Shown here one piece after another: positions 40,548-64,000 of a stretch of 64,000 nucleotides of DNA. The stretch comes from Escherichia phage HY03. The position numbers were made by a program, and so were the translations under genes. Under the pieces are notes generated by a model. That model ran no database searches. It had not been told where the DNA came from and worked only from the letters and a program-made list of their open reading frames with translations. Numbering within the stretch: the stretch's first letter is position 1; each line of letters opens with the position of its first letter. The stretch lies in the sequence record NC_031047.1, one strand, 5' to 3'.

Positions 40548-40566
40548 AAGGGGCCGAAGCCCCTTA
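40548..40566 (-). terminator. rho-independent terminator after hoc
   Basis: Minus-strand hairpin AAGGGGC-TTCG-GCCCCTT followed by T-rich run. Confidence 0.5.
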
Positions 40567-40575
40567 TGATTATGA

Positions 40576-41706: not shown

Positions 41707-41715
41707 AAGTTATCC

Positions 41716-42396: not shown

Positions 42397-42445
42397 AATA
42401 TTTCCTCAGTATAAATATAGATATATTTATTACTCGGAAAATAGT

Positions 42446-43063: not shown

Positions 43064-43065
43064 TT

Positions 43066-45263: not shown

Positions 45264-45276
45264 GGGCTTCGGCCCT

Positions 45277-45519
45277 TTGGAGAAAAAGATGTTACTAGAA
45301 TTTAAACAATTTCTTTATGAAGCTTCTATTGATGAATTTATGGGTAAAATTGCCTCTTGCCAAACATTAGAAGGTCTAGAAGAACTTGAAGCTTATTACA
45401 AGAAAAGAGTTAAAGAAACTGAATTAAAAGATACTGATGACATCTCTGTGAGAGATGCTTTGGCAGGAAAAAGAGCTGAATTAGAAGATTCAGACGATGA
45501 AGTAGAAGAAAGCTTTTAA
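45277..45519 (+). CDS. uvsW.1: UvsW.1-like small acidic protein
   Basis: 80 aa; position downstream of uvsW (here separated from it by the HNH gene). Confidence 0.6.
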   Translation: MEKKMLLEFKQFLYEASIDEFMGKIASCQTLEGLEELEAYYKKRVKETELKDTDDISVRDALAGKRAELEDSDDEVEESF

Positions 45520-45574
45520 ATTAAAAAAGGCCCAACCAAAAAGGAAGGGCCAAAACTATAGACTAAAGGTCACA

Positions 45575-45805
45575 CTATAGCAAAAGTTGTGTTTCATTTA
45601 ATTGTTCTTCCGAACTTTCTGAAACTGGTAGTTCTTTAATGTAATTATAGCAAGGCCCAGGATGTACAGGACCTTTGTCTGTTTCAACAACCAATGCAGA
45701 ATCGATTGGAGTTTTACAGACAACACAAATCTTATCTGACATGATTGTCTCCTTTTGAATATAGTAATATTTATAAACCCATTTTAATCCGCATTTCTTG
45801 TACAC
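45575..45805 (-). CDS. hypothetical Cys-containing small protein
   Basis: ORF upstream of uvsY; CVVCKTP...PGPCYNY suggests a zinc-binding motif; start may be internal Met. Confidence 0.45.
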   Translation of the reverse strand: MYKKCGLKWVYKYYYIQKETIMSDKICVVCKTPIDSALVVETDKGPVHPGPCYNYIKELPVSESSEEQLNETQLLL

Positions 45806-45865
45806 GGATTAAGCAAGCTTCCATCTCTGCTAATAGTCGAAATACTTCTTTATAATCTGTCATAT

Positions 45866-46093
45866 TTACCCCATATCTCTCATATGCATATCAATGCCCA
45901 TATCTTTAGAATAAAAATATTCATCAAGATATCCGGCAAATTTTCCTTTAATATAAAGGACATCTTCACCACACGGGTGGTCGGCCAGGATACGAATATC
46001 CTGACGCTTAAGATTATGCTTTTTCATTAAGAATTGAATCTCAGTTTCAAATTCTTCTTCATAATTAAAAGCATCATCAATGCTATATCTCAT
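45866..46093 (-). CDS. hypothetical protein (75 aa)
   Basis: ORF immediately upstream of uvsY. Confidence 0.45.
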   Translation of the reverse strand: MRYSIDDAFNYEEEFETEIQFLMKKHNLKRQDIRILADHPCGEDVLYIKGKFAGYLDEYFYSKDMGIDMHMRDMG

Positions 46094-46506
46094 TATTTTC
46101 CAGCCTCAAATGCCCGCATGTCTTGAATATGCTTAATAGCAAATCCACGTGATTTAATAGCATCAAGAGCTCCGCTACAGAAATCTAATAAAATTCCCCA
46201 ATATTGTAATGAAGTATCAACCTTTAAAACATCCTTATCAGCTGATAGAACTGTCTTCATTTCTGATTTCTCGTAACGATCCATACTAAATTCATCACCA
46301 TCTCCTCGTCCCGAGTAGTAGTCTAATCTAGCTTTAAGAGCAACTTTTTTCTGTGCGTCAATTCTAAGCATTTCCTTTTTAATACTTGAATGCTTATTAA
46401 GCCATTTACTATATAACATCACATTATTAGCTGCTTCATACTGTAATTTAGTCGAATCTATAAACACATCTTTCTTCAATTCTTCTTGAAGATCTTCTAA
46501 TCTCAT
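46093..46506 (-). CDS. uvsY: UvsY recombination mediator
   Basis: 137 aa as T4 UvsY. Confidence 0.9.
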   Translation of the reverse strand: MRLEDLQEELKKDVFIDSTKLQYEAANNVMLYSKWLNKHSSIKKEMLRIDAQKKVALKARLDYYSGRGDGDEFSMDRYEKSEMKTVLSADKDVLKVDTSLQYWGILLDFCSGALDAIKSRGFAIKHIQDMRAFEAGK

Positions 46507-46572
46507 ATTGTTCTCTATTCAATTGTTATTGGATGGACTTAGATTCATTATACCACGTTTTAACGTGAAGCA

Positions 46573-46971
46573 TTATACCCTATTACTCGAAGCCAGTTGC
46601 AGTTTTATCTGCTCAATATCATCAGGGTTATCGATGACCGAAAAGCGTATTTCTACTATCAGAGTATAATCATCATAAACTGGTATCACATTAACTGATA
46701 ATTTATCAATACGTGGCTCATAGTTTCTTACTGCGCTTTCGATATTGCGCTCAACTGTGTCAGCAGTAAGAGGAGTCATATTTTCAAAAAGCTGGTCTGA
46801 TAAATCACATCCAAATTCAGGGTCAAACGGTCTTGAACCTTTTCTTGTTGTAATAATTCCCAAAAGACTGTTTTTAATTGACCTTAATCCAAGTGATCTG
46901 GAAACATCTTTGTTCCAATCCATTTTCATTTCCGGGTCAATATCAGAATAAAGCTTATTAATATTTGCCAT
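46573..46971 (-). CDS. 25: gp25 baseplate wedge / sheath initiator (LysM-like)
   Basis: 132 aa as T4 gp25. Confidence 0.9.
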   Translation of the reverse strand: MANINKLYSDIDPEMKMDWNKDVSRSLGLRSIKNSLLGIITTRKGSRPFDPEFGCDLSDQLFENMTPLTADTVERNIESAVRNYEPRIDKLSVNVIPVYDDYTLIVEIRFSVIDNPDDIEQIKLQLASSNRV

Positions 46972-47597
46972 TATAGTAACTCAAAGAACTCTTTGAGGCC
47001 TCTTATTACATGAGCATGGGTTTTTCCACACTCTGGACATTTAATTGGAACAGCCAAATAGACGGTAGGTTTTAAAAGCATATCTTTTATAGCTACAATA
47101 TCTGACTCTGTGATGATAGAATATAAATCTTCTAGTTCCTTTTCATTTAAGTCTTCAACTGGAATGCTTTCCCCGTTAGCATGAATCGTTTCTATGCATG
47201 ATACTATCATGTGGGCTATATTTTTATCATCAAAAATTTTAGGGTATCGGAATTTAATTTTAATGTCACCCAGTGTATACCAGAGGTCTTCTGGTGCATC
47301 TATTTGTGTATGTAATAGATTTATATGGGTTGGTATTTCAGTTCCACAGGTGCACTTCCAGGAGTTTTCGTGATTAACTTCGCCGAGAGAATGTGCCCAT
47401 AAATGAATCAACAATAGTTCTGATTCTTGGCGGTTTAAATCTTTTGCATTTGTGCAGTCTTTGATTAGCTTTTTAACAATTACTTCTACAGAACCATTAT
47501 TTTTGGCAGTAATAAGTTCTAGATATTCTTTAAGCGTGAATGCGCGACAATTGATTATTTTAGAACCAACTCTCACATCAAATTTGTATTCATACAT
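46971..47597 (-). CDS. 26: gp26 baseplate hub protein
   Basis: 208 aa as T4 gp26. Confidence 0.85.
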
Positions 47598-47622
47598 ATT
47601 TAGCTCCTTTATTTATCATATT

Positions 47623-47630
47623 TATAAATA
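47623..47630 (+). promoter_or_regulatory. T4 late promoter box TATAAATA
   Basis: TATAAATA upstream of gene 51. Confidence 0.45.
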
Positions 47631-47647
47631 GAATAAAAGGAGCATCT

Positions 47648-48397
47648 ATGGCAAACATTATTCGTTGTAAATTACCAGATGGTGTTCATCGTTTTAAACC
47701 ATTTACGGTAGAAGATTATCGAGATTTTTTGTTAGTTCGAAACGATATAGAACATCGGTCACCACAAGAACAAAAAGAAGTAATTGCTGATTTAATTGCT
47801 GATTATTTTGGAGACTATCCGAAGACTTGGCAACCATTTATATTTTTGCAGGTATTTGTAGGGTCGATAGGTAAAACTAAAGTACCGGTCACATTTGTAT
47901 GCCCAAAATGTAAAAAAGAAAAGACAGTTCCATTTGAAATATATCAAAAAGAATTAAAGGAACCTATTTTTGACGTAGCTAATGTTAGAATTAAATTAAA
48001 TTTTCCTTCTGAGTTTTATGAAAATAAAGCAAAGATGATTACTGAAAATATTCATTCTGTTCAAGTAGATGAAATATGGTATGATTGGAAGGAAATTAGT
48101 GAATCAAGTCAAATAGAACTTGTTGACGCCATTGAGATAGAAACATTAGAAAAAATTCTCGATGCAATGAATCCTATTAATTTAACACTGCATATGTCGT
48201 GTTGTAATAAGTATGTAAAAAAATACACTGATATAGTAGATGTGTTTAAGCTATTAGTTAACCCAGATGAAATATTTACTTTTTATCAAATTAATCACAC
48301 ACTTGTAAAAAGTAATTATAGCTTAAATTCAATAATGAAAATGATTCCTGCTGAGCGCGGATTCGTATTAAAACTGATTGAGAAGGATAAACAATAA
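47648..48397 (+). CDS. 51: gp51 baseplate hub assembly protein
   Basis: 249 aa as T4 gp51. Confidence 0.85.
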
Positions 48398-49572
48398 TGA
48401 GTATGTTGCAACGCCCCGGATATCCAAATCTCAGCGTTAAATTATTTGAGAGTTATGACGCTTGGAGTAATAATAGATTTGTTGAATTAGCTGCTACTAT
48501 TACCACATTAACTATGCGGGATTCTCTTTATGGTCGAAATGAAGGAATGCTACAGTTTTATGATTCTAAAAATATCCATACAAAAATGGATGGAAATGAA
48601 ATAATTCAGATTTCTGTAGCTAACGCAAACGATATTAATAATGTTAAAACACGAATTTATGGATGTAAGCATTTTTCTGTATCTGTAGATTCAAAGGGCG
48701 ATAACATCATTGCTATTGAATTGGGAACTATTCATTCCATAGAAAATCTTAAATTTGGCAGACCGTTTTTCTCTGATGCAGGTGAATCTATAAAAGAAAT
48801 GCTTGGTGTCATTTATCAAGACCGCACATTATTAACTCCAGCAATAAATGCTATAAATGCTTATGTTCCTGATATTCCATGGACTAGTACATTTGAAAAT
48901 TATTTGTCCTATGTAAGAGAAGTTGCTCTAGCTGTAGGAAGTGACAAATTTGTATTTGTGTGGCAAGACATCATGGGAGTTAACATGATGGATTATGATA
49001 TGATGATAAATCAAGAACCATATCCAATGATTGTAGGTGAGCCATCTTTAATAGGTCAATTCATCCAAGAATTAAAATATCCATTGGCATATGATTTTGT
49101 TTGGTTGACTAAATCAAACCCGCATAAACGTGATCCAATGAAAAATGCTACTATCTATGCTCATTCGTTTTTAGATTCTTCACTGCCAATGATTACTACA
49201 GGAAAGGGTGAAAACTCTATTGTAGTGTCAAGGTCAGGTGCTTATTCTGAAATGACTTATAGGAATGGATATGAAGAAGCTATTCGTCTTCAAACTATGG
49301 CGCAATATGACGGCTATGCTAAATGTTCTACTGTCGGTAATTTTAACTTGACACCTGGCGTTAAAATTATTTTTAATGATAGTAAAAACCAATTTAAAAC
49401 AGAATTTTACGTTGATGAAGTTATCCACGAATTATCCAATAATAATTCAGTAACTCATCTATATATGTTCACTAATGCAACGAAACTGGAAACAATAGAC
49501 CCAGTTAAGGTTAAAAATGAATTTAAATCTGATACTACCACTGAAGAAAGTAGTTCTTCCAATAAGCAATAA
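48397..49572 (+). CDS. 27: gp27 baseplate hub protein
   Basis: 391 aa as T4 gp27. Confidence 0.9.
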
Positions 49573-50050
49573 AGAAGTTTCTATTCCTAAAATGGGTCTT
49601 AAACACTATAACATTTTAAAAGATGTTAAAGGTCCTGATGAAAATTTAAAACTTTTGATCGATTCTATTTGTCCGAATTTGTCACCGGCAGAAGTTGATT
49701 TCGTTTCTATTCATTTATTGGAATTTAATGGAAAGATTAAATCTCGTAAAGAAATAGATGGTTATACTTATGACATTAATGATGTTTATGTGTGCCAAAG
49801 ATTAGAATTTCAATACCAAGGAAATACATTTTATTTTAGACCTCCTGGAAAATTTGAGCAATTTTTGACAGTAAGCGATATGTTATCTAAATGCTTGCTT
49901 AAGGTCAATGATGAAGTTAAAGAAATTAATTTTCTTGAGATGCCAGCATTTGTATTAAAATGGGCAAATGATATTTCTACAACTTTAGCAATTCCTGGCC
50001 CTAATGGTCCAATAACTGGAATTGGCAATATTATTGGATTATTTGAATGA
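49517..50050 (+). CDS. 28: gp28 baseplate hub distal protein
   Basis: 177 aa as T4 gp28. Confidence 0.85.
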
Positions 50051-51819
50051 AAAAGCCACAAGAAATGCAAACGATGCGTAGAAAAGTTATTTCAGATAAT
50101 AAACCAGTTCAGGAAGCGGCTAAATCCGCTTCTAATACTTTATCTGGACTTAACGATATATCTACGAAATTGGATGATGCTCAAGCTGCTTCTGAATTAA
50201 TTGCTCAAACTGTCGAAGAAAAATCGAATGAAATAATTGGAGCAATTGACAATGTAGAAAGCGCAGTGAGTGATACTACTGCTGGTTCTGAGTTAATTGC
50301 TGAAACTGTTGAAATTGGCAATAATATTAATAAAGAAATCGGCGAATCGCTCGGGAGCAAATTAGATAAATTAACAAGTTTACTAGAGCAAAAAATTCAG
50401 ACAGCTGGAATTCAACAGACTGGAACTAGTTTAGCCACGGTTGAAAGCGCTATTCCTGTTAAAGTTGTTGAGGACGATACAGCTGAATCTGTGGGTCCTT
50501 TATTACCGGCTCCTGAAGCAGTTAATAATGATCCTGATGCTGATTTTTTCCCTACCCCTCAGCCAGTTGAACCCAAACAAGAATCGCCAGAAGAAAAACA
50601 GAAAAAAGAAGCATTTAATTTAAAATTATCTCAAGCTTTAGATAAATTAACAAAGACTGTTGATTTTGGATTTAAAAAATCCATTTCAATTACTGATAAA
50701 ATATCAAGTATGCTATTTAAGTATACTGTCAGTGCTGCTATTGAAGCTGCTAAAATGGTTGCATTAATAATGGCTGTTGTTATTGGAATAGACCTACTGA
50801 TGGTTCATTTTAAATATTGGTCAGATAAATTTTCAAAAGCCTGGGATTTGTTTAGCACTGATTTTAAAACTTTTTCAAGCGAAACCGGAACTTGGGGTCC
50901 TTTATTACAGAGCATCTTTGAATCTATTGATGAAATTAAAAAGTTCTGGGAAGCTGGAGACTGGGGTGGATTGACAGTAGCTATTGTGGAAGGACTTGGA
51001 AGTGTTCTTTATAATTTAGGAGAACTTATTCAACTTGGAATGGCTAAATTATCAGCAGCAATTCTTCGAGTTATTCCTGGTATGAAGGATACCGCTGATG
51101 AAGTAGAAGGAAGAGCATTAGAAAATTTCCAAAATTCTACTGGAGCATCTCTCAATAAAGAAGACCAAGAAAAAGTAGCAAATTATCAAGATAAACGAAT
51201 GAATGACGATCTTGGTCCAATAGCAAAAGGATTAGATAAAATTGCTAATTGGAAAACCCGTGCATCTAACTGGATTCGTGGTGTTGATAATAAAGAAGCA
51301 TTGACAACCGATGAAGAACGCGCAGCAGAAGAAGAAAAATTAAAGCAACTTTCACCAGAAGAAAGAAAAAACGCTTTAATGAAGGCTAATGAAGCTCGTG
51401 CTGCGATGATTCGTTTTGAAAAATATGCCGATTCAGCTGATATGAGTAAAGACTCAACAGTTAAATCAATTGAAGCCGCTCATGAAGACCTTAAAAAACG
51501 GATGAATGACCCGGATTTAAATAATTCACCTGCAGTTAAAAAGGAGCTTGCTTCTAGATTTGCTAAAATTGATGCTACTTATCAAGAGCTTAAGAAAAAT
51601 CAACCTGAGGCCAAACCTGAAACTTCTGCTAAATCGCCAGAAGCAAAACAAGTCCAGGTAATAGAAAAGAACAAAGCGCAACAAGCTCCTGTTCAACAAG
51701 CATCTCCTTCAATCAATAATACTAATAATGTTATTAAGAAAAATACTGTCGTTCATAATATGACACCTGTTACGAGTACAACTGCTCCTGGTGTATTTGG
51801 CGCGACTGGAGTTAATTAA
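50047..51819 (+). CDS. 29: gp29 tail tape-measure / baseplate hub protein
   Basis: 590 aa as T4 gp29. Confidence 0.9.
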   Translation: MKKPQEMQTMRRKVISDNKPVQEAAKSASNTLSGLNDISTKLDDAQAASELIAQTVEEKSNEIIGAIDNVESAVSDTTAGSELIAETVEIGNNINKEIGESLGSKLDKLTSLLEQKIQTAGIQQTGTSLATVESAIPVKVVEDDTAESVGPLLPAPEAVNNDPDADFFPTPQPVEPKQESPEEKQKKEAFNLKLSQALDKLTKTVDFGFKKSISITDKISSMLFKYTVSAAIEAAKMVALIMAVVIGIDLLMVHFKYWSDKFSKAWDLFSTDFKTFSSETGTWGPLLQSIFESIDEIKKFWEAGDWGGLTVAIVEGLGSVLYNLGELIQLGMAKLSAAILRVIPGMKDTADEVEGRALENFQNSTGASLNKEDQEKVANYQDKRMNDDLGPIAKGLDKIANWKTRASNWIRGVDNKEALTTDEERAAEEEKLKQLSPEERKNALMKANEARAAMIRFEKYADSADMSKDSTVKSIEAAHEDLKKRMNDPDLNNSPAVKKELASRFAKIDATYQELKKNQPEAKPETSAKSPEAKQVQVIEKNKAQQAPVQQASPSINNTNNVIKKNTVVHNMTPVTSTTAPGVFGATGVN

Positions 51820-51827
51820 GGAATAAT

Positions 51828-52922
51828 ATGGCAATTGTTAAAGAAATAACTGCTGATTTAATTAAAAAGTCTGGCGAGACAATTTCAGCTGGACAGAGTA
51901 CTAAATCAGAAGTAGGAACTAAAACATACACAGCCCAGTTTCCAACTGGGCGTGCTAGTGGGAATGACACTACAGGGGACTTCCAGGTAACAGATCTATA
52001 TAAGAATGGATTATTATTTACTGCATACAATATGTCATCTAGGGATTCTGGAAGTCTCAGAACGATGAGATCTAACTACTCTTCTTCATCTTCTAGTATT
52101 TTACGTACAGCCAGAAACACTATCAGTAATACAGTATCAAAACTGTCAAATGGATTAATATCAGATAATAATTCAGGAACAATAAGTAAAGCCCCTGTTG
52201 CAAATATTCTTTTACCAAGATCTAAATCTGATGTTGATACATCATCACATAGATTTAATGATGTTCAAGAAAGTCTTATCAGCAGAGGCGGAGGTACTGC
52301 TACTGGTGTGCTAAGTAATATTGCTTCAACTGCAGTATTTGGGGCACTGGAAAGTATAACACAAGGTATAATGGCTGATAATAATGAGCAGATTTATACT
52401 ACAGCCAGAAGTATGTATGGTGGTGCTGAGAATAGAACTAAAGTGTTTACATGGGATTTGACTCCACGTTCAACAGAAGATTTAATGGCTATTATTAATA
52501 TCTATCAGTATTTTAACTATTTTTCTTATGGTGAAACGGGCAAATCTCAATATGCTGCTGAAATAAAGGGGTATTTAGATGATTGGTATCGTTCTACGTT
52601 AATTGAACCTTTATCTCCGGAAGACGCAGCTAAAAATAAAACACTATTTGAGAAAATGACATCGAGTTTAACTAACGTTTTAGTAGTTTCAAACCCGACA
52701 ATTTGGATGGTGAAAAACTTTGGTGCAACATCTAAGTTTGATGGAAAAACTGAAATATTTGGTCCATGCCAAATACAGAGCATCAGATTTGATAAAACAC
52801 CTAATGGTAACTTTAACGGATTAGCTATTGCTCCAAACCTCCCTAGTACATTTACTCTTGAGATTACTATGAGAGAAATTATCACGTTAAACCGTGCTTC
52901 TTTATATGCGGGGACTTTTTAA
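51828..52922 (+). CDS. 48: gp48 baseplate tail-tube junction protein
   Basis: 364 aa as T4 gp48. Confidence 0.9.
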   Translation: MAIVKEITADLIKKSGETISAGQSTKSEVGTKTYTAQFPTGRASGNDTTGDFQVTDLYKNGLLFTAYNMSSRDSGSLRTMRSNYSSSSSSILRTARNTISNTVSKLSNGLISDNNSGTISKAPVANILLPRSKSDVDTSSHRFNDVQESLISRGGGTATGVLSNIASTAVFGALESITQGIMADNNEQIYTTARSMYGGAENRTKVFTWDLTPRSTEDLMAIINIYQYFNYFSYGETGKSQYAAEIKGYLDDWYRSTLIEPLSPEDAAKNKTLFEKMTSSLTNVLVVSNPTIWMVKNFGATSKFDGKTEIFGPCQIQSIRFDKTPNGNFNGLAIAPNLPSTFTLEITMREIITLNRASLYAGTF

Positions 52923-53845
52923 TGTATTCTTTAGAGGAATTTAATAATCAAGCAATAAACGCAGATTTCCAACGTAATAATATGTTTAGCTGCGTTTTTG
53001 CGACAACTCCATCAACTAAAAGCTCTTCGTTGATAAGTTCAATTAGCAACTTTTCTTATAATAACTTGGGCTTAAATTCAGATTGGTTAGGATTGACTCA
53101 AGACGATATTAATCAGGGAATTACTACGCTAATTACTGCTGGCACACAAAAACTGATAAGAAAATCAGGGGTTAGTAAATATCTTATTGGTGCCATGAGT
53201 CAACGTACAGTTCAAAGCTTATTAGGCTCATTTACAGTTGGTACATATTTAATTGACTTCTTTAACATGGCATATAACTCATCTGGATTGATGATATACT
53301 CCGTAAAAATGCCAGAGAATAGATTATCCTATGAAACTGACTGGAACTATAATTCTCCTAATATTCGCATAACCGGAAGAGAATTAGACCCTTTGGTTAT
53401 TTCATTTAGAATGGATTCAGAAGCTTGTAACTATCGTGCAATGCAAGACTGGGTTAACTCCGTTCAAGACCCAGTAACTGGATTACGCGCTTTGCCGCAA
53501 GATGTCGAGGCAGATATTCAGGTTAATCTTCATTCTCGCAATGGATTGCCTCATACTGCGGTGATGTTCACCGGATGCATTCCAATATCAGTGAGCGCTC
53601 CTGAGTTATCATATGATGGAGATAACCAAATAACTACATTTGATGTTACTTTTGCGTATAGAGTGATGCAGGCTGGAGCGGTTGATAGGCAAGCTGCGCT
53701 TGAATGGCTTGAATCTGCTGCTATAAATGGTATTCAAAGCGTTCTCGGAAATAGTGGAGGTGTTACTGGACTATCTAATTCGCTTTCACGACTTAGTAGA
53801 CTAGGAGGAACCTCAGGAAGCATTTCAAATATTAGTATACTATGA
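52922..53845 (+). CDS. 54: gp54 baseplate tail-tube initiator
   Basis: 307-aa ORF (T4 gp54 about 320; start may be non-ATG upstream). Confidence 0.85.
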   Translation: MYSLEEFNNQAINADFQRNNMFSCVFATTPSTKSSSLISSISNFSYNNLGLNSDWLGLTQDDINQGITTLITAGTQKLIRKSGVSKYLIGAMSQRTVQSLLGSFTVGTYLIDFFNMAYNSSGLMIYSVKMPENRLSYETDWNYNSPNIRITGRELDPLVISFRMDSEACNYRAMQDWVNSVQDPVTGLRALPQDVEADIQVNLHSRNGLPHTAVMFTGCIPISVSAPELSYDGDNQITTFDVTFAYRVMQAGAVDRQAALEWLESAAINGIQSVLGNSGGVTGLSNSLSRLSRLGGTSGSISNISIL

Positions 53846-53893
53846 CAGGGATTGTCAATTCGCAGAGTAAAATATTAGGAGCAATATAACAAC

Positions 53894-53920
53894 GGGGACC
53901 TTTCGGTCCCCATATTTTTA
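53894..53920. terminator. bidirectional rho-independent terminator after gene 54
   Basis: Hairpin GGGGACC-TTTC-GGTCCCC followed by T-rich run. Confidence 0.6.
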
Positions 53921-54208
53921 TTTGCGGAATGAAATGAAAGCAGAAACTGAAGCAACTAAACTGTCTTCAATATAAACTTCAATTTTTACCGGAGCTTCTG
54001 ACTCAAATTTACCTGTTACTACACCCTGAAAAATACTTTCAGTCTGTTCTGGCTTTGAAAAATTTTCAGAAGGAAAAATTCCGAACTTTTTATCTGTTCC
54101 AAAAATTTTAATAAATTCATCGTAAACCGCTTCGTTAAAAGCATTATCAGCAGGAATAACGCCTTCAACTACAAGTTCTTGACCTAAAAAGCGTAAAGAA
54201 GATTTCAT
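53918..54208 (-). CDS. hypothetical protein (96 aa)
   Basis: Minus-strand ORF convergent with gene 54. Confidence 0.45.
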   Translation of the reverse strand: MKSSLRFLGQELVVEGVIPADNAFNEAVYDEFIKIFGTDKKFGIFPSENFSKPEQTESIFQGVVTGKFESEAPVKIEVYIEDSLVASVSAFISFRK

Positions 54209-54636
54209 TTTGTGTTCCTCATGTTATGTCAGTAAGACTACTATAACACAACACGAGGGACTTGTAAACTACATTTTGAACTTTTTAGTACGCGTAATAG
54301 GCATGCGTCGATTTTATACTGTTTCATTGTTTGAAGAGCAGTATCAAAAACAGCATTAATGACACCAATTGGATTTCCACCCAAGTTTTTAAGCTTAACT
54401 AATGATAGTTTCTAGTTTCTCATTAACACCTATCATTACGATATGCATCATTTTGTCGCCTGGTTTAACGTTTTATCTGTATCACCGCCAGAGGTGTATG
54501 TACAAAATCTAAATCCAGGAAGCACGCTTTCTTCGCCGGCTTGAATAGCAAAAATTTGTGGTATTTTATGCTTAGGATTTAAGTTAACAACCGGCGCCGA
54601 AGCGCCGTCAAATAATTATGTAATAAGTTCCATGAT

Positions 54637-55281
54637 TTATCCTTGAACGAACTTGTAAGGCATGTTTGCAATATCTATGCAAGACGCAATAATTCCAAGA
54701 GATGATTCTACTTTCTGTTTAACATTTGATGAAACAAATGATGCAAAGTCAACTCTGTCTTCTATTTCAATATCACCTGTCATTGCAACTACTTCACCAG
54801 TTTCCATTAGACGGTCACCGTCATAAATTACTGATTCGGTGAGTTCTTCCGTAGTCATAACTTCAGCTTGAATGAGTTTTGTATTATTAAATGTTGTTCC
54901 GTCATTATTAGAAGCATCAGTTATTTTATTAACTTTGACCATCAATCCACGTGGTAGAATAACTTCAGCTTCTGTTGCTATTCCGAGACTTCCTGGATAT
55001 ACAACATTAACTTTATGAGCTCCATCAATTGCCCATCCTATTTGAACTTTAACGTATTCAGGATTTTCTTTATACGCTCTTATTTCGTTTGGATTAATAG
55101 TTATTCCTTCTTCATTTTTATCAACTGTCAATTCATTACGAGCTTCTGGTTCTAAAAGACCGATACCAGCATGTGTAATTCCAAAACGTCCAAAAATGAT
55201 AGGAGTTAAAGAAGTAGATACAAAATTTCTGAAATAGAACACTTTATTTTTAACTAATGCTTCGTATATAGGAGCAGTCAA
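54637..55281 (-). CDS. ADP-ribosyltransferase-like protein, apparently N-terminally truncated (Alt/Mod-like)
   Basis: 214-aa ORF from a TTG start; STS motif (FVSTSLTP) and E-x-E (TEAEV) about 90 aa later, but no upstream Arg-motif region; in-frame stop 5 codons upstream. Confidence 0.4.
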   Translation of the reverse strand: MTAPIYEALVKNKVFYFRNFVSTSLTPIIFGRFGITHAGIGLLEPEARNELTVDKNEEGITINPNEIRAYKENPEYVKVQIGWAIDGAHKVNVVYPGSLGIATEAEVILPRGLMVKVNKITDASNNDGTTFNNTKLIQAEVMTTEELTESVIYDGDRLMETGEVVAMTGDIEIEDRVDFASFVSSNVKQKVESSLGIIASCIDIANMPYKFVQG

Positions 55282-55282
55282 T

Positions 55283-55633
55283 ATGAAAGGTAATGTTTAT
55301 TTAGTAGTTCATGATTTAACATTCTATTTTAATCATAATGATACTGTTATTTCTGAACGTGTAATTAATTTGCTTTATCAGCATGCAGATTATGTTTATG
55401 TCGAAAACGAATATGGTCATTGGCAATTTCTCAAAAATCGTTCATTTGGTTTAGATGGTTACGAATATTTTGATCGTAAAGACCTTTTAGATACAATTCC
55501 GTTATCTACACAATATCAAAATCATAAGTCTTTACATAAATGCCGGCTAATTCGAAATGCTGAATCCGCGTATGAAGCAATTGATTTATGGCGTAAACGC
55601 CGTGAACAGATTGATGCTTTAAAAGAATATTAA
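55283..55633 (+). CDS. hypothetical protein (116 aa)
   Basis: ORF with Shine-Dalgarno GGAG before ATG; begins at the synteny breakpoint. Confidence 0.5.
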   Translation: MKGNVYLVVHDLTFYFNHNDTVISERVINLLYQHADYVYVENEYGHWQFLKNRSFGLDGYEYFDRKDLLDTIPLSTQYQNHKSLHKCRLIRNAESAYEAIDLWRKRREQIDALKEY

Positions 55634-55639
55634 GAAACC

Positions 55640-55995
55640 GGGTCGCTACCGGTAAGTCGTCGGACTGATGTTCCCTGGAGTATAGTTTCCTCCCACAGTT
55701 TTACTGTGTTCTGGCTCTTTACTATTACAGCAGAAACGGCGCACCGAATTATCGATTCGAGGAAATATCTTTGCCATAAGCCGAGTAGCGTTTTTGACGG
55801 AACGTTCGGATATGGTCGAGATATGGCCTTTTAAAAATATTGAGTAGCGTCAACTACTTAATAACCGGGTTCAAATCCCGGCGTTTCGTACAAACACTTG
55901 CCTTAGCAGGTGGAACCCCGACAAGGTTGCCGCAAGGCTTAGCCCTGACCGAAAGGTTGGGGCTTTTTAGTTTGAATCACTCAGAGAATGCTGTT
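55640..55995 (+). ncRNA. candidate structured small-RNA locus
   Basis: About 400 bp with no ORF of 60 aa or more; tRNA-like T-arm CCGGG-TTCAAAT-CCCGG (55864-55880); terminal hairpin CCCTGACC-GAAA-GGTTGGGG plus T-run (55951-55976). Confidence 0.25.
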
Positions 55996-56043
55996 ACGGA
56001 TAATAAATAATTAATAACCAATAAATTATTTCAAGGATTTTAA

Positions 56044-56607
56044 ATGAAAACCTATGCCGAATTTTTAACTGAAGCAGCAAAATTACCATCTGAAGCAGAT
56101 CTTACTAAAGTATTCTTCCACTTGGACCCAAAAGACCGGGGCGATTTTCTTAAGTGGAAAGCTAAAGCTATTGAAATGTATAACATCGATAACAGTTCTT
56201 TTACGATGAGCCAAGAAAATAGTTTCAATAAAGCATTTTTCAAAATTTCTAAGAAATTGGCATCTGGCGCTCAGGTTTCTAAATCTGCATTAGCTACTCC
56301 TGAACGTGCACCTGTTAAAATTTCTAAGAATATGTTTGACACTAAAAAATATGTCAATGCTTTGAATAAAGCTCTTGATGCATTGGATGATGCAAAGAAG
56401 GCAGCCCGCGATCTTCAAGACGTGTATACCGATTTTGATCGTAAAACTAAAGGTTCTATTTCAAATAGCGAACGCAATAGTGTAAGTGTTTATTCTGATA
56501 GCCTTGATGTTCTTGGCGATGCATATACTGAAATTAAAAATCGTATTAACACCGCATCTAAGCTAAAAGCTGCTGCAGAAGCTATAATAACTAAACTAGG
56601 TAAATAA
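56044..56607 (+). CDS. internal-protein-like capsid-targeted protein
   Basis: 187 aa; N-terminal MKTYAEFLTE|A matches the T4 capsid targeting sequence cleaved by gp21. Confidence 0.6.
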   Translation: MKTYAEFLTEAAKLPSEADLTKVFFHLDPKDRGDFLKWKAKAIEMYNIDNSSFTMSQENSFNKAFFKISKKLASGAQVSKSALATPERAPVKISKNMFDTKKYVNALNKALDALDDAKKAARDLQDVYTDFDRKTKGSISNSERNSVSVYSDSLDVLGDAYTEIKNRINTASKLKAAAEAIITKLGK

Positions 56608-56615
56608 TTTTAAAT

Positions 56616-56640
56616 CCCTATCTAAATGATAGGGCTTTTT
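56616..56640 (+). terminator. rho-independent terminator
   Basis: Hairpin CCCTATC-TAAATG-ATAGGG followed by CTTTTT. Confidence 0.55.
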
Positions 56641-56762
56641 GGTATCTAGGCCTTTCCGGGCCTCTCTAGGCATCATTTAGTTTATATCCTTTATAATATA
56701 TTATCCTACCTTTTAATTGCCCCTCCCCGCCCTAAAATTCCCTAAAAATTTTTCACAAAACT

Positions 56763-56792
56763 GTTTACATCCCTGTTCTTCTATGGTACTAT
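56763..56792 (+). promoter_or_regulatory. T4 early-type promoter
   Basis: -35 GTTTAC, 18-bp spacer, -10 TACTAT, upstream of ORF 56836. Confidence 0.55.
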
Positions 56793-56835
56793 ATCAATAT
56801 CAACTACTGATACAGAAAACAACTTGGAGAATAAA

Positions 56836-57099
56836 ATGGATAATTACGGTGAACTGTTCAACTTCTTTATGAAATGTGTTTCAGAAGATTTCGGTCGTAC
56901 AGTGAATGATATTAAAGTTATCGGTCCTGATCATCCGATGTTTGAAACTTACGCAGTAATGGGTAATGAAGATGGTCAGTGGTATACTGTAAAGGTTGTG
57001 ATTAACATGTTCACTGCTGAAGGTTATGTTAAACTGTCTTCTAAAGTTTACCATGATAACGATGAAATCGCAGAAGAATATTTCAATAATATGAAATAA
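56836..57099 (+). CDS. hypothetical protein
   Basis: ORF 56824..57099; ATG at 56836 preceded by GGAGA. Confidence 0.5.
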   Translation: MDNYGELFNFFMKCVSEDFGRTVNDIKVIGPDHPMFETYAVMGNEDGQWYTVKVVINMFTAEGYVKLSSKVYHDNDEIAEEYFNNMK

Positions 57100-57167
57100 T
57101 TGTGTACAAACACCAAGGACGGTGTTATTATAGACTTATCAAAACAAATACAGAAACGGAGAAATAA

Positions 57168-57332
57168 ATGACTACTTTAATTATTTGGTTTGACGAAAAT
57201 GAAGAAACATACTGCGTGAACATTGGCGAAAGCCCAATGCCAGAATTTGAATCTTCGGATAAAAACTCGGTTGTATCTTGGGCTGAAGGTTATAAAGCAG
57301 CAAAAGGCGATGTTGAAATAGTTTACAAATAA
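57168..57332 (+). CDS. small hypothetical protein (54 aa)
   Basis: Below the 60-aa cutoff of the ORF track; ATG preceded by ACGGAGAAATAA; fills an otherwise empty 270-bp gap. Confidence 0.4.
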   Translation: MTTLIIWFDENEETYCVNIGESPMPEFESSDKNSVVSWAEGYKAAKGDVEIVYK

Positions 57333-57375
57333 TACTCTTATGGATTTTAAATCTTAATTAACCTAAGGAAATACT

Positions 57376-57969
57376 ATGAACACACTGAAGAAAATTGTTG
57401 AGTTTATTCGCACTAAACTTGGTTCTGCTATGGCTAAAAATTTATCCGTTGAAGAACAGTATACTGCTGCGGCAGCAAAACTACTTGATAAGATTAAAGA
57501 TCTAAAAACTGCTTCTGTTAAATCTATTAATGAAGAAAAGCGTATTCGTGAACTTATTGTCGAAAAGAATAAGCAGGCCGAATCAAAAGAGCGTGAAATT
57601 CGCAAGCTTCTTTCTGAAGGTCAAGATGTAACAATGCATGCTAAACTTGGTTTGCTATATCGTCGAACAGCTGAACAGTTGACTACTAAAGCTGATGGTT
57701 ATGCTGAAATGCGAATTGAAATCGCCAAGAAAGTAGTTGAGTTAGATGATGCTCGCCAAGAACTTGCAGTTAAATTGGAATATATCCGTGAAACTCGTGC
57801 AGCAAATGCCCTTGGAATTAGTACTGCTGATGATGTAGTTGAAATTGCAGCGCTGACTAAGGTTGATATTGAAGATACTCTTGCTCGAGTTGAAACCTTT
57901 AATGGTAATATTTCTGGGGTTGAAACTACCTCTGCCGATGTTCAGGAATACATTAATTCTCTGAAATAA
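57376..57969 (+). CDS. hypothetical coiled-coil protein (197 aa)
   Basis: Lys/Glu-rich helical sequence; hairpin GGGGCTTAGGCCCC downstream. Confidence 0.5.
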
Positions 57970-58010
57970 TGATAAGGGGCTTAGGCCCCTATTACTTGGA
58001 GTAAATAGGA

Positions 58011-58619
58011 ATGAAAATGCAAAGTGATTTCAATTCAATGTTTGAAGAGTTCCAAAGACAGGTTGATGTTCCAGACCAATTGCTAAATGCTCTTAAACGC
58101 ATGGCAGAAGGACGTAATTATTATTGGGGTTCTTCATATGAAACAGACGAAAGCCTTTCTGGAAGATTTTCCAGAGGTAAAAAGTCTTTAATACGTCCTG
58201 GAATACTTATTAACAGTATTGAATCAATTTATTCATTGACATGCGATTTTGATGTTGAATTTACTGATTTCATTTCTCCTGAATGGACAGTTTGTTATTT
58301 AAACGACGATTTTGATTATCTCGGTGTTTATAGTTTAAGTGACGCATGGTTTAAACGTAACTTACAAAAGTCAAATTTATTCTATATTGATACTACAGTA
58401 AAATTTCAGGGAAAGAAATATTTCTTTACTCTTATAGTTGATTCTGAAACGAAGCATGAAAATAAACGTATTCTTAGTAAAAGAAATATCTTGAATATTG
58501 TTGATGATCTTTTTGATAAATTAGTGGAAAATCCTAATTTTGAAAGTGATTTATTACTAGAAAAATTTGTTAAGGAATGTAGAGAATATGTCAAAACCAT
58601 CACTATACCTTCCAAGTAA
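58011..58619 (+). CDS. hypothetical protein (202 aa)
   Basis: First of four consecutive ORFs sharing a C-terminal F-x-x-E-C-R-K/E motif. Confidence 0.5.
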   Translation: MKMQSDFNSMFEEFQRQVDVPDQLLNALKRMAEGRNYYWGSSYETDESLSGRFSRGKKSLIRPGILINSIESIYSLTCDFDVEFTDFISPEWTVCYLNDDFDYLGVYSLSDAWFKRNLQKSNLFYIDTTVKFQGKKYFFTLIVDSETKHENKRILSKRNILNIVDDLFDKLVENPNFESDLLLEKFVKECREYVKTITIPSK

Positions 58620-58980
58620 ACCGTTGAAGTATGAATTAAAGCGTCAGATAATTTCTACTGATGTATTAATAGGTCCTGTTATACTTATATCATTTGTAAT
58701 TCTATTGATTATTGGAGGTGTTTTAGATGTTATGACTGATATTGATTCTGGCGAAATACTTGTGTTAATGCTAATTCTTCCATTAATAGTTCCATTTTTA
58801 TTAGTACCTATAAATTGGGTAGGATACTGGTATCAAGGAAGGCATTATCGTAAACGTGTACGTGATTGGAAAGCACAGTGTAAAAAGATTAAAAAGGAAC
58901 ACCAGCTTAAACTTGCTGCGTATGAATTTGATGAAATTATGAAATTTGTTAAGGAATCACGATGCAAAAGCCAAAACTAA
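58588..58980 (+). CDS. small membrane protein (two predicted TM helices)
   Basis: ORF 58567..58980; probable start MSKPSLY with RBS; hydrophobic stretches VILISFVILLIIGGVL and ILVLMLILPLIVPFLLVPI. Confidence 0.5.
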   Translation: MSKPSLYLPSKPLKYELKRQIISTDVLIGPVILISFVILLIIGGVLDVMTDIDSGEILVLMLILPLIVPFLLVPINWVGYWYQGRHYRKRVRDWKAQCKKIKKEHQLKLAAYEFDEIMKFVKESRCKSQN

Positions 58981-59324
58981 ATAAAGTCAAATATTCGCTT
59001 CCTGAGTCATTTTTAATTTTTGCTGTGGCGTTGGCTGCAGCTCTTGCAGGTAGTATTTTTGGATTGTTAATTGACTGTCTTATTTTAAACATCGACGACA
59101 CAGTAAATATAACAGAAGTTTGGAGTGAGCTTTGTTATACTAAAATTATTTCATTGTTTTCATTCTTTGGTACAATGTTATATTTTCATTATGATAATTT
59201 TAAAATAAATTGGCAAAGAAAAAAGGATTACAAAATACAATTAAAAGAATATAACAACTACGTGTCTTATATTGAAAAAGAATCAATGGAAGAGTTTGTG
59301 AGTGATTGTAGGAAAATCAAATGA
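58962..59324 (+). CDS. small membrane protein
   Basis: 120 aa; hydrophobic N-terminal segments; C-terminal ...EEFVSDCRKIK. Confidence 0.5.
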   Translation: MQKPKLNKVKYSLPESFLIFAVALAAALAGSIFGLLIDCLILNIDDTVNITEVWSELCYTKIISLFSFFGTMLYFHYDNFKINWQRKKDYKIQLKEYNNYVSYIEKESMEEFVSDCRKIK

Positions 59325-59809
59325 TTTTAAAAACTCGCTGGTATGATTTAGATGATGGGGATGATGGCATTTCAGTTGATAGAGTTGATTGGAATGGTTG
59401 TTCCGAAGATACAAAGAAACGATTAATTAGGGAGTTTAGAATGGGATATCAAGCAGCTAAACCATTTACTGTAACAGATGATAAATTCGTGTGTATTCAA
59501 AATGGTCGCGCTAAGTTAACGAATGCCGATTGGTTCACAGATAAGAAGGTTATTCTGTGGTATATCATTAGTCTTCCTATATCATCGTTCGTATTTTACT
59601 TTTTTATAAAAAATCCAATGGACAGAATAGGAGATTGGGTTCTTTTAACTATACTTGTTAATATTTTTACAGCAGCAGTATTATCAGGAATATGGCGTAT
59701 GTTCATTGAAATGCCATGGCGTTTACGCAGACAGCAAAAGATTTTTGATGAAAAGAAATATGCTCAAAATTTAAATAACTTTATCACTGAATGCAGGAAA
59801 TTAAAATGA
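59321..59809 (+). CDS. small membrane protein
   Basis: 162 aa; two hydrophobic segments; C-terminal ...NFITECRKLK. Confidence 0.5.
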   Translation: MILKTRWYDLDDGDDGISVDRVDWNGCSEDTKKRLIREFRMGYQAAKPFTVTDDKFVCIQNGRAKLTNADWFTDKKVILWYIISLPISSFVFYFFIKNPMDRIGDWVLLTILVNIFTAAVLSGIWRMFIEMPWRLRRQQKIFDEKKYAQNLNNFITECRKLK

Positions 59810-60246
59810 AAACATTATCAGCTGGTATTATCTTCATGACAGAAGATAAAGATTTATTTATGGGTCGGGTTACTGGTTCTCGTAAGCCTGGAATGATGGC
59901 ACATCGCTGGGATATTCCAAAGGGACGTGTAGAAAGTTCTGATTTGAATGCACTGGAAGCTGCAAAAAGAGAATGCTTAGAAGAGACCGGTTTTAGCAAT
60001 TATAATCCAGACCTTCTAGAAGACCTAGGTGTATTTAAATATTCTAGTAATAAAGACTTACAGTTATTTTATTATACGATTCCAGTAGAGCATGAGATGT
60101 TTAGAAATTGCCATTGTGAGTCTTATTTTGAAAATAAAGATGGTGTTATGATTCCAGAGATGGACGCTTTTGCTCTTATTCCTCGTACTCAGTGGCAATA
60201 TGTGATGGGTCCTTCACTTTACCGAATAATGAACAACCTCTTTTAA
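59791..60246 (+). CDS. nudE: Nudix hydrolase NudE (e.1)
   Basis: 151 aa; Nudix box GRVESSDLNALEAAKRECLEETGF; directly upstream of lysozyme gene. Confidence 0.8.
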   Translation: MQEIKMKTLSAGIIFMTEDKDLFMGRVTGSRKPGMMAHRWDIPKGRVESSDLNALEAAKRECLEETGFSNYNPDLLEDLGVFKYSSNKDLQLFYYTIPVEHEMFRNCHCESYFENKDGVMIPEMDAFALIPRTQWQYVMGPSLYRIMNNLF

Positions 60247-60777
<531 letters not shown>

Positions 60778-60781
60778 AGCT

Positions 60782-60811
60782 GTTTACTTTCTCTTAGAAT
60801 TGTGATAGTAT
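60782..60811 (+). promoter_or_regulatory. T4 early-type promoter
   Basis: -35 GTTTAC, 18-bp spacer, -10 TAGTAT, upstream of ORF 60871. Confidence 0.5.
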
Positions 60812-60870
60812 ATTCACAGTTACTTGAATAGACAATTACCAATTAAAATATTTACATTTAAAGGAAACAC

Positions 60871-61344
60871 ATGAAAACATATCAAGAATTTATTACTGAA
60901 GCAGCTATTAATTCTCAAATTATTGCTGAATCTTTTACTGATCTTTTGAAATTTAAAAAAGGACAGAAAATCACTGCTGTATTGGATGATGGTACAGAAG
61001 TTGAGATGGATGTACAGGGATATAATTATGCAGTAGATGGAAAACTGTATAATAAATCTCATGCTAAATTTGATTCATTTGACGACTTTGTTAATACAGT
61101 TGAAGATGAAAAAACTCGTCGATCCATTGCAACTGGTGATGCTAAGGTTCTTATGGCACATGGTCATGAACGCATTCGCGCTAAACAGAATAAAATGGGT
61201 GAAGATAATTTTGCATTAGTTGGTTATCAATCTGGTAAGCAAACTTATGGCTATCAGCGTACTGCTACCATGTATAATAAAAATGGTAAAATCGCTTTCG
61301 TGAATAGTAAAGGTTCTATTCAGTACGTTAAATCGTTCAAATAA
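60871..61344 (+). CDS. internal protein (ipII/ipIII position) with capsid targeting sequence
   Basis: 157 aa; N-terminal MKTYQEFITE|A is the T4 internal-protein targeting signal; lies beside gene e. Confidence 0.65.
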   Translation: MKTYQEFITEAAINSQIIAESFTDLLKFKKGQKITAVLDDGTEVEMDVQGYNYAVDGKLYNKSHAKFDSFDDFVNTVEDEKTRRSIATGDAKVLMAHGHERIRAKQNKMGEDNFALVGYQSGKQTYGYQRTATMYNKNGKIAFVNSKGSIQYVKSFK

Positions 61345-61485
61345 TATGGGAACAACCTGGACCTCATGATTCTGTGAGGGATTCCCGCCAACCTGTAATA
61401 AGGTCGAGCCCAAGTGCGGTAATGGGTAAATACAGAAATGGACAATTCATGCGCCATGGAATGGCCCAAACCTAGAGAGAACAAA

Positions 61486-62025
61486 ATGAGAACATTTTTA
61501 ACTGGTCCTTATCTATCCCTGATGAATGCTTTTACACACCATTCTGATGCTAGAGTAGAAGAAATTTGTAAAAACGATTATATCCCGCCATTTGAAGACT
61601 TACTTAAGCAGTATTGCACACTTCGACTAGATGGTGGACGTCAATCCGGTAAATCAACTGCAGTAACTAATTTTGCCGCTAATTGGTTGTATGACGGTGG
61701 AACAGTTATTGTTCTTTCTAATACTTCAGCTTACGCTAAAATTTCTGCAAATAGCATCAAAAAGGAATTTTTGCGTTATTCTAATGATGATATACGTTTT
61801 CGTTTATTTACTGATTCTGTGCGCAGTTTTATCGGTAATAAAGGAAGCAAGTTCAGAGGTTTAAAGCTTTCGCGAATTTTGTATATAATTGATGAGCCTG
61901 TCAAATCTCCTGATATGGATAAGATTTATAGTGTCCATATTGACACTGTACACTGCTGCTGTAATATTAAATGTTGTATTGGTGGTATTACTCGTCCACA
62001 GTTTTTCGTAATCGGAATGCAATGA
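61486..62025 (+). CDS. hypothetical P-loop NTPase-like protein
   Basis: ORF 61438..62025; Walker A-like GGRQSGKST and Walker B-like ILYIIDEP; start probably MRTFLT. Confidence 0.45.
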   Translation: MRTFLTGPYLSLMNAFTHHSDARVEEICKNDYIPPFEDLLKQYCTLRLDGGRQSGKSTAVTNFAANWLYDGGTVIVLSNTSAYAKISANSIKKEFLRYSNDDIRFRLFTDSVRSFIGNKGSKFRGLKLSRILYIIDEPVKSPDMDKIYSVHIDTVHCCCNIKCCIGGITRPQFFVIGMQ

Positions 62026-62351
62026 TGACAGACACTCAGCTTTTCGAATATCTTTATTTTTCGCCAAAAACTATTAAAAATAAATTAGTGAATCATTTTG
62101 AAATTTTGGCAAATAACAACGTCTTGAGCGAATTTTATCCTAAGCAATACAAATTACAAAAAGGCGTATTCAAAGGATGCAGAGTTTTGTGTACTGCTCC
62201 TAATGCACGGCTAATGAATAAAATTCCATATTTTACCATGGAATTTATTGATGGGCCTTTTAAAGGACTAATCACCCAAAGTTTAATGGCATATGATTCT
62301 GAGCCATTTTTAATTAAAGAACAATCTTGGATAAATTTATTTTCTAATTGA
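62022..62351 (+). CDS. hypothetical protein
   Basis: ORF 61971..62351; likely start at ATGATG overlapping the upstream stop (ATGA). Confidence 0.45.
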
Positions 62352-62358
62352 GGTTTAT

Positions 62359-62721
62359 ATGAAAGCATATCAAATTCTTGAAGGCACACATAAAGGTACT
62401 ATTTATTTTGAAGATGGTATTCAAGCACGAATTATCGTTTCTAAAACCTTTAAAGAGGACTCTTTTGTAGACCCAGAAATTTTCTACGGTTTGCATGCCC
62501 GTGAAATTGAAATTGAGCAACAGCCTACAGTTAAAATTGAAGGTGGTCAACACCTGAACGTTAACGTTCTGCGTCGTGAAACTCTGGAAGATGCAGTTAA
62601 GCATCCGGAAAAATATCCGCAGCTGACCATCCGTGTATCCGGTTATGCAGTTCGCTTTAACTCTCTGACTCCGGAACAGCAGCGCGACGTTATCGCTCGT
62701 ACCTTCACCGAGAGTTTGTAA
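62359..62721 (+). CDS. autonomous glycyl-radical cofactor (GrcA/YfiD-like)
   Basis: 120 aa; C-terminal ~60 aa [60 protein letters not shown] matches E. coli GrcA with RVSGY glycyl-radical motif; host-like codon usage in the 3' half. Confidence 0.75.
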
Positions 62722-62942
62722 TGGCAAAGATAATTATTGAAGGTTCTGAAGATGTGCTAAATGCTTTCGCCGAATGGTTTAGTAATTCAGGCGAACAGCA
62801 ATTTAACGAAGCATGGAACATGGGTGATATTGATGGAATTTATCCCACGACAGAAATTTCTGTTCAAGGATATGGAATTCATGAGCCTATTCGTTTAGTT
62901 GAATATGATTTAGGTACTGGTGAGGAAGTAAAATATGATTGA
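62721..62942 (+). CDS. hypothetical small acidic protein (73 aa)
   Basis: Tightly packed early ORF. Confidence 0.45.
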   Translation: MAKIIIEGSEDVLNAFAEWFSNSGEQQFNEAWNMGDIDGIYPTTEISVQGYGIHEPIRLVEYDLGTGEEVKYD

Positions 62943-63201
62943 AGATATTAAGGGTTATAAGCCACATACTGAAGAGAAAATCGGTAAAGTGAATGCTATT
63001 AAAGACGCTGAAGTTCGTTTAGGACTTATCTTTGATGCTTTATACGATGAATTCTGGGAAGCACTAGATAATTGTGAAGACTGTGAATTCGCGAAGAATT
63101 ATGCTGAAAGCCTCGATCAGTTAACTATTGCTAAAACGAAACTCAAAGAAGCCAGTATGTGGGCTTGCCGTGCTGTGTTCCAACCAGAGGAAAAATACTA
63201 A
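62935..63201 (+). CDS. hypothetical small protein (88 aa)
   Basis: Tightly packed early ORF, two ORFs upstream of regB (vs.4-like position). Confidence 0.45.
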
Positions 63202-63479
63202 TGGCTCAATTAAGCGCAGGGTTTGGTTATGAGTATTATACTGCCCCTCGTCGTGTATCTGTTGCTCCTAAGAAAATTCAAAGTCTTGATGACTTCCAGG
63301 AAGTAGTTCGTAACGCTTTCCAGGACTATGCACGTTATCTTAAAGAAGATTCACAGGACTGTCTCGAAGAAGATGAAATTGCTTACTATGAGCAGCGTCT
63401 TGAACAGCTCAAAAATCTACATGAGGTTCGTGCAGAAGTTTCAAAGTCTATGAATAAATTGGTCAGATTTAAAGAATAA
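63159..63479 (+). CDS. hypothetical small protein (106 aa)
   Basis: Early ORF adjacent to regB. Confidence 0.45.
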
Positions 63480-63481
63480 CT

Positions 63482-63511
63482 GTTTACTTTTCCTCTTGAC
63501 TGTGGTATAAT
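63482..63511 (+). promoter_or_regulatory. T4 early-type promoter upstream of regB
   Basis: -35 GTTTAC, 18-bp spacer, -10 TATAAT, then GAGGAG RBS. Confidence 0.6.
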
Positions 63512-63538
63512 TTTTCTATCAGTTAAGAGGAGAATAAC

Positions 63539-64000
63539 ATGACTATCAACACAGAAGTTTTTATTCGTCGAAATAAGCTCCGTCGTCACTTTGAGTCGGA
63601 GTTTCGTCAAATTAACAATGAGATTCGTGAGGCATCAAAAGCAGCAGGGGTCTCATCGTTTCATCTAAAATATTCTCAACATCTTCTTGATCGCGCAATT
63701 CAACGGGAGATTGATGAGACATACGTTTTTGAATTATTCCATAAAATAAAAGACCATGTTTTAGAAGTTAATGAATTCCTGAGTATGCCTCCGCGTCCTG
63801 ACATTGACGAGGATTTTATTGATGGGGTTGAATATCGTCCTGGACGTTTAGAAATCACAGATGGAAATCTTTGGCTTGGATTTACAGTTTGTAAACCTAA
63901 CGAGAAGTTCAAAAACCCGTCACTTCAATGTAGGATGGCAATTATCAACAGTCGTCGTTTACCAGGAAAGGCTTCTAAAGCAGTAATTAAAACTCAATGA
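63539..64000 (+). CDS. regB: RegB endoribonuclease
   Basis: 153 aa as T4 RegB (MTINTEVFIRRNKLRR...); identification from memory. Confidence 0.6.
   Translation: MTINTEVFIRRNKLRRHFESEFRQINNEIREASKAAGVSSFHLKYSQHLLDRAIQREIDETYVFELFHKIKDHVLEVNEFLSMPPRPDIDEDFIDGVEYRPGRLEITDGNLWLGFTVCKPNEKFKNPSLQCRMAIINSRRLPGKASKAVIKTQ

Follow-up and report, generated by a model that had tools for sequence, protein, structure and literature searches.

An undamaged 3' fragment of alt at the edge of a 55-kb flipped block in a T4-like phage genome segment, probably produced by a wrong-orientation join

Results

The window, by which we mean the whole 64,000-nucleotide stretch of DNA analysed here, is a segment of a Tequatrovirus (T4-like) genome. 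A tRNA cluster occupies positions 1-1291 and is followed by late structural genes, with genes 48 and 54 at 51828-53845. Beyond these, on the minus strand, lie a homologue of alt.-3 (DUF5498; 53918..54208), which is the normal downstream neighbour of alt, and a decayed duplicate of the alt 5' end (54280..54633), which is 51% identical to Alt residues 1-117 at the amino acid level and is interrupted by stops. The duplicate is the counterpart of T4 alt.-1/alt.-2, an annotated old partial duplication at the same locus, and it begins 4 nt downstream of the stop codon of the open reading frame (ORF) that concerns us here. This ORF (54637..55281, minus strand) runs from a TTG at 55279-55281 to a TAA at 54637-54639 and has a product of 214 amino acids. 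An earlier reading made from the letters alone (hereafter the sequence-only reading) had described a TTG-opened frame with an in-frame stop just upstream and with the motifs FVSTSLTP and TEAEV, reminiscent of an ADP-ribosyltransferase (ART). These particulars hold: a TAA at 55297-55299 lies 5 codons upstream of the TTG, and both motifs are within the ORF.

The ORF is the undamaged 3' 644 nt of a Tequatrovirus alt gene and not a gene in its own right. All 644 of its alt-derived bases equal those at the 3' end of the intact alt gene of Salmonella phage SG1 (697 amino acids; YP_010075090.1), and the sole mismatch in the 645-nt ORF is base 1, the junction base, which changes the SG1 Met484 codon from ATG to TTG. 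On alignment, the protein matches SG1 Alt residues 484-697 with 100% identity, so that the ORF carries the last 214 of 697 codons plus the stop. Over these residues it is identical, in protein and in DNA, to the type of Alt found in T2, T6, RB32, SG1 and JEP6, and its downstream neighbours (the alt.-1/alt.-2 remnant, alt.-3 and gene 54) are also those of an SG1-type alt locus. It differs from that locus in having inverted ORF116 sequence joined in place of residues 1-483. The sequence-only reading had suggested comparison with T4 Alt, ModA and ModB. Identity to T4 Alt (NP_049811.1, 682 amino acids) is 75% over 214 residues; the two share the STS and ExE motifs and a conserved C-terminal stretch of ~100 residues, whereas the allele in the window differs in the variable middle and has neither the Arg motif (LYRSQR in T4) nor any of the N-terminal region. 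Identity to ModA and ModB is only 13-21%, which rules out a mod origin, although these proteins belong to the same fold family as Alt and the C2, iota, CDTa and C3 exoenzymes (PF03496, R-S-ExE ARTs) and their ExE motifs align. The PF03496 profile (ADPrib_exo_Tox) itself was matched with E = 1.1e-14 and 54.7 bits, against a curated cut-off of 23.4 bits. That match, together with complete identity to a characterised family, settles the question of an ART fold, which the sequence-only reading had left exposed to the chance that no such profile would be found. The family, the Alt ADP-ribosyltransferases, is already known, and Alt itself ranks among the most familiar phage ADP-ribosyltransferases. 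Of the two origins that reading had offered, we find the first, an Alt/Mod-type gene of which a rearrangement has left the 3' portion, the gene being alt proper and the homology ending exactly at 55280; its other option, a remnant, does not agree with zero differences in 644 nt from SG1 alt.

What has been retained is only part of the catalytic domain. The fragment covers PF03496 profile positions 103-195 of 196, whereas intact Alt covers positions 2-195 (residues 378-627 in SG1 and 374-614 in T4). Two elements of the R-S-ExE active site are in place: the S-T-S motif (55210..55218, minus strand; ORF residues 22-24, equivalent to S505-T-S507 of SG1 Alt) and the E-A-E of the ExE motif (54964..54972, minus strand; E104/E106, equivalent to E587/E589), which aligns with the EYE of CdtA and the EQE of ModA and ModB. 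The third is absent. In SG1 Alt, the catalytic Arg is found at Y479-R480, which aligns with the catalytic VYR of CdtA and of iota toxin Ia; it stands 25 residues before the STS motif and 4 codons beyond the cut. The sequence-only reading was therefore right that the Arg motif is missing, but the 40-50 residues at which it had placed that motif upstream of STS is not the spacing in Alt. In all, the cut takes away residues 1-483. With them go the initial ~106 residues of the ART domain and everything N-terminal to it, a region of ~370 residues that every Alt protein carries ahead of this domain. The N-terminal region of Alt is presumably needed for packaging into the head. In T4, Alt is an injected head protein, a mono-ADP-ribosyltransferase whose target is Arg265 in one of the RNA polymerase alpha subunits (PMC2988021), and in the related ModB the catalytically important residue is R73, the R73A/G74A active-site mutant being inactive (PMC10468400).

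The lost portion is not elsewhere in the window. A tblastn search of the 64-kb window with SG1 Alt returned only residues 484-697 and the decayed copy of residues 1-117; residues 118-483 are encoded nowhere in it. This rules out rescue of a full alt by a relocated 5' part or by correction of the frame, the latter being an outcome that the sequence-only reading had allowed for. Upstream of the TTG the minus strand is simply the antisense of ORF116. There is no Shine-Dalgarno sequence before the TTG, and promoter-like matches for the fragment (13, compared with 8.8 +/- 3.1 in shuffles) are not above expectation. Since residues 1-483 including YR480 are lost, and since the only start is a TTG made by the junction and lacking a Shine-Dalgarno sequence, the ORF as written is not expected, from its sequence, to give an active or packaged Alt.

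The cut itself (55280..55281; J1 below) is a non-homologous join of alt to the start of ORF116, and the TTG 'start' is created by this junction. Positions 1..55280 are colinear with relatives. In megablast comparisons, alt homology stops at window position 55280 in 755 phage records, and from that same position there begins an inverted match to a region ordinarily situated on the far side of tRNA-Arg and holding ORF116, rnaD/rnaC and e.8-e.1. In a local comparison with SG1, the forward arm (window 1..55280) corresponds to SG1 from position 10397 of locus L004 through position 14056 of L005, and the reversed arm (window 55280..64000) to L004 from 10387 down to 1411. The reference endpoints 10397 and 10387 leave 9 nt (AGTGAGGAA) missing between the arms; this is the native ribosome-binding site of ORF116 and is conserved in 11 of the 11 relatives examined. 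Base 1 of the window is accordingly the other edge of a flipped block of ~55.3 kb (55,280 nt) and lies 9 nt from the partner sequence at J1. Microhomology at J1 amounts to 1 nt. We found no repeats or inverted repeats of at least 14 nt at either break, and therefore no substrate for homologous recombination; repeat-mediated recombination and a de Bruijn mis-join are both ruled out on this ground.

Immediately beyond J1 on the plus strand is ORF116 (55283..55633), a conserved hypothetical gene of 116 codons that is directly downstream of tRNA-Arg in every relative examined. The sequence-only reading had credited this neighbour with its own ribosome-binding site, and an AGGAG (55270..55274, plus strand) does lie 8 nt upstream of the ATG at 55283. 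It is the reverse complement of alt codons and stands in for the lost native GAGG of ORF116. By chance, a core so spaced would be expected in 0.9% of cases if a 5-mer is required and in 4.8% if a 4-mer is accepted. Downstream there is a partial match to rnaD at 55633-55745 and a match to rnaC at 55752-55890, the latter with 97.8% identity to species 1 RNA of T4; neither RNA is represented by a family in Rfam, and the small 'ORFs' at 55633..55890 (plus strand) overlap these stable RNAs. In T4 and T6, rnaD/rnaC directly follow tRNA-Arg, whereas in the window, SG1, JEP6 and G4498 ORF116 stands in between.

The junction has no counterpart in the collections that we searched. No junction-spanning record was found by megablast among 50,697 phage records; neither J1 nor a comparable junction occurs in the 755 records that carry the region; and there is no exact match to the junction in IMG/VR, JGI metagenomes or GTDB genomes. 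The exact 214-residue product has no entry in a gene-position collection of public assemblies, and an exact look-up of the SegB protein of the window likewise found no record. An identical ORF116 was found on 12 contigs, with tRNA-Arg upstream (the normal context) in 10 of the 10 displayed. At the alt break, 800 nt are contiguous in 351 of 403 phage records, and comparisons with T4, G4498 and JEP6 give no HSP boundary there, results which together rule out a natural mosaic boundary or a paralogue-repeat boundary at this point.

The other edge of the block falls at a conspicuous place. The window opens with tRNA-Arg (7..83, minus strand) and 6 nt of its 3' flank (1..83 in all), adjoined by a segB-type gene for a GIY-YIG homing endonuclease (87..752, minus strand). 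The recognition sequence of SegB is GGTTCRANTCC...CCAR, of which GGTTCRANTCC is the T-psi-C motif; cleavage follows immediately upon CCAR at tRNA 3' ends, and the tRNA-Arg of T2L is among the tRNAs concerned (PMC2330249). The recognition core is present here, in the order GGTTAGAATCC, 11 nt, CCAA, TTATA and then the window edge. In T6, the strongest genome-wide SegB SITE-seq peak (65665-65668; log2FC 8.5) (PMC13096335 Supplementary Data 1) lies 8-11 nt past the CCA of tRNA-Arg (65676..65750). The homologous position is within the 9 nt missing at J1, and the flipped block has its edge 6 nt beyond the CCA of tRNA-Arg in the window, inside the SegB cleavage zone. No such signal is seen at the alt break: the nearest T6 SITE-seq peak is weak and ~145 nt away, and a single SegB motif with one mismatch, 48 nt away, is at background frequency, leaving a SegB site at this break unsupported.

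Discussion

Whether the join is an artefact or real, the alt fragment is neither a new nor a working enzyme. The most likely cause of the join, and one that we consider probable, is a wrong-orientation concatenation of two pieces of a normal genome, in which case alt is intact in the phage. The sequence would then open with a block of 55,280 nt, from tRNA-Arg to the middle of alt, and continue with the remainder of the genome in reverse complement; a circularly permuted normal genome would have been obtained in two pieces, of which one was reversed at concatenation. On such a scheme the 5' 1,450 nt of alt (codons 1-483) should lie, in reverse complement, at the distal end of the source record, whose final bases would be ...GTTTATCGTGCTCAAAGTA or close to it. 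We infer an artefact in preference to a real inversion because the edge of the block is base 1 of the window, the fragment shows no decay whatever, the junction is unique among hundreds of relatives and neither break offers a substrate for recombination. Each arm remains colinear with relatives up to the joint itself, and an end of the sequence forms the limit of the flipped block. An arbitrary start within ~10 nt of the breakpoint in a genome of ~168 kb has odds of ~1e-4, whereas a start at this place is to be expected if it is the end of an assembly piece. The lack of decay in the fragment, next to a genuinely old alt remnant that is heavily decayed, implies that the truncation is very recent if it is real at all.

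Two other accounts of the fragment seem to us much harder to sustain. In the first, the ORF is an alt pseudogene of long standing that is decaying, or else a truncated ART that has been recruited to a new function, with translation beginning at the TTG. The STS and ExE motifs are intact, the frame is open for 214 codons, and T-even phages do keep old partial copies of alt in the form of alt.-1 and alt.-2. Those copies, however, derive from the 5' end of the gene and are decayed, while the ORF here derives from the 3' end and is not; its 0/644 differences from SG1 alt mean that it has had no independent history. With the ART fold halved and its catalytic Arg gone, a TTG that lacks a Shine-Dalgarno sequence, and no instance of the exact product in the public assemblies searched, we regard this account as highly improbable. 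Scarcely more credible is a chimera, either a contig built from two co-occurring related phages or a chimeric long read. The alt side is indeed closest to SG1/JEP6 (98-100%) and the ORF116 side to G4498 (99.8-100%), but which of JEP6, G4498 and SG1 is closest changes repeatedly over the whole window, as is ordinary in T-even mosaicism, so that a switch at the junction is uninformative and a two-phage origin is not indicated. Nor does a chimera account for the partner end being 9 nt from base 1 of the window.

The more serious competitor to a wrong-orientation join is a real and recent inversion of ~55 kb, linked to SegB, that has knocked out alt, and we think of it as possible if rather doubtful. 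A SegB break just past tRNA-Arg and a second break in alt would have been followed by inverted end joining with the loss of a few nucleotides, and the 1-nt microhomology and 9-nt deletion at J1 fit such end joining. The alt gene is dispensable in T4. The case draws further on the presence of segB beside tRNA-Arg, on the intact recognition core, on an edge within the SegB zone and on the top T6 peak mapping inside the missing 9 nt. A break at this place is what a real nuclease-generated double-strand break would give and so counts against an artefact, the more so as a random contig end would fall in the SegB zone only ~1e-4 to 1e-3 of the time. The AGGAG gained by ORF116 could reflect selection; as a coincidence it has a chance of 0.9-5%. 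Nor did we find anything in the middle of alt, a repeat or a mosaic boundary for instance, that would make an assembler break there. SegB is known, moreover, to drive rearrangements both at and away from its own locus (PMC13096335). Against all this, an inversion in a circularly permuted genome gives no reason for the block to start at base 1 of the window, unless the second junction could not be assembled; no clear SegB signal is seen at the alt break; and none of the 755 related records has a comparable junction. Mock-treated T6 virion DNA has no natural ends at the tRNA-Arg site, and what has been described of SegB-driven events to date is tandem amplification that depends on UvsX/UvsY, not inversion (PMC13096335). 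The segmental amplification of T6 (Chihara et al. 2026, PMC13096335) resembles the present case in its SegB-zone break beside tRNA-Arg and segB, but there the products are tandem repeats formed by homologous recombination, whereas the event supposed here is one inversion of 55 kb whose junctions are non-homologous.

If, as we favour, two pieces were joined in the wrong orientation, the practical value of these findings is as a flag: the source record probably holds a wrongly oriented block of 55 kb, and the 'truncated Alt' call at 55280 and the gene calls at the ends of the record should not be taken as biology unless supported by reads. Were the inversion true, the phage would be alt-null, and ORF116, rnaD/rnaC and e.8-e.1 would be cut off from the promoters of the tRNA cluster. 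Large inversions are, to our knowledge, essentially unreported among T-even phages, and this would be the first large inversion in Tequatrovirus driven by a homing endonuclease, as distinct from homing or tandem amplification. We hold it somewhat unlikely that a real join has left a wild T-even phage with its late structural block of ~55 kb, from tRNA-Arg to the middle of alt, inverted at the strongest SegB site, and with a natural alt-null state. Such a phage would add a breakpoint at a SegB cut site to what was recently found about the reshaping of phage genomes by SegB, and would offer a natural knockout in which the contribution of Alt to early transcription could be tested.

Several features near the fragment concern the older history of the locus. 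Directly after the alt stop is a remnant of the duplicated alt start (54619..54633, minus strand), reading ATG GAA CTT ATT ACA TAA (MELIT*). A hairpin then follows (CGGCGC-TTCG-GCGCCG; 54592..54607, minus strand), with a perfect stem of six GC pairs and a TTCG loop, and interrupts the old alt-like frame. The whole of this stretch is 99.3% identical to SG1, and the hairpin may serve alt as a terminator or influence the stability of its RNA. The alt.-2-like ORF at 54241..54384 (minus strand) has 47 amino acids; its SG1 equivalent is annotated as a 92-residue 'RNA polymerase-ADP-ribosyltransferase' fragment. The old duplicate of alt decays differently across lineages.

The window also carries further candidate homing endonucleases. 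At the place of tRNA-Gln in SG1 and G4498 there is a 210-residue ORF with HNH-like Cys/His motifs (1298..1930, minus strand); it has no Pfam match at E <= 0.001, neither ARAGORN nor Rfam finds a tRNA-Gln in the window, and JEP6 has an annotated 'homing endonuclease' at this spot. Four free-standing ORFs (5409..6083, minus strand; 30951..31607, 42446..43063 and 44571..45263, plus strand) occupy stretches of the window for which SG1 offers no match or only a partial one, as is also the case for JEP6 and G4498 when judged by bin coverage. Two of these ORFs look like homing endonucleases: that at 42446..43063, upstream of uvsW, is GIY-YIG/SegE-like, and that at 44571..45263 has NUMOD3 motifs. The ORFs at 5409..6083 and 30951..31607 have no Pfam match, and the latter directly follows the tail sheath gene.
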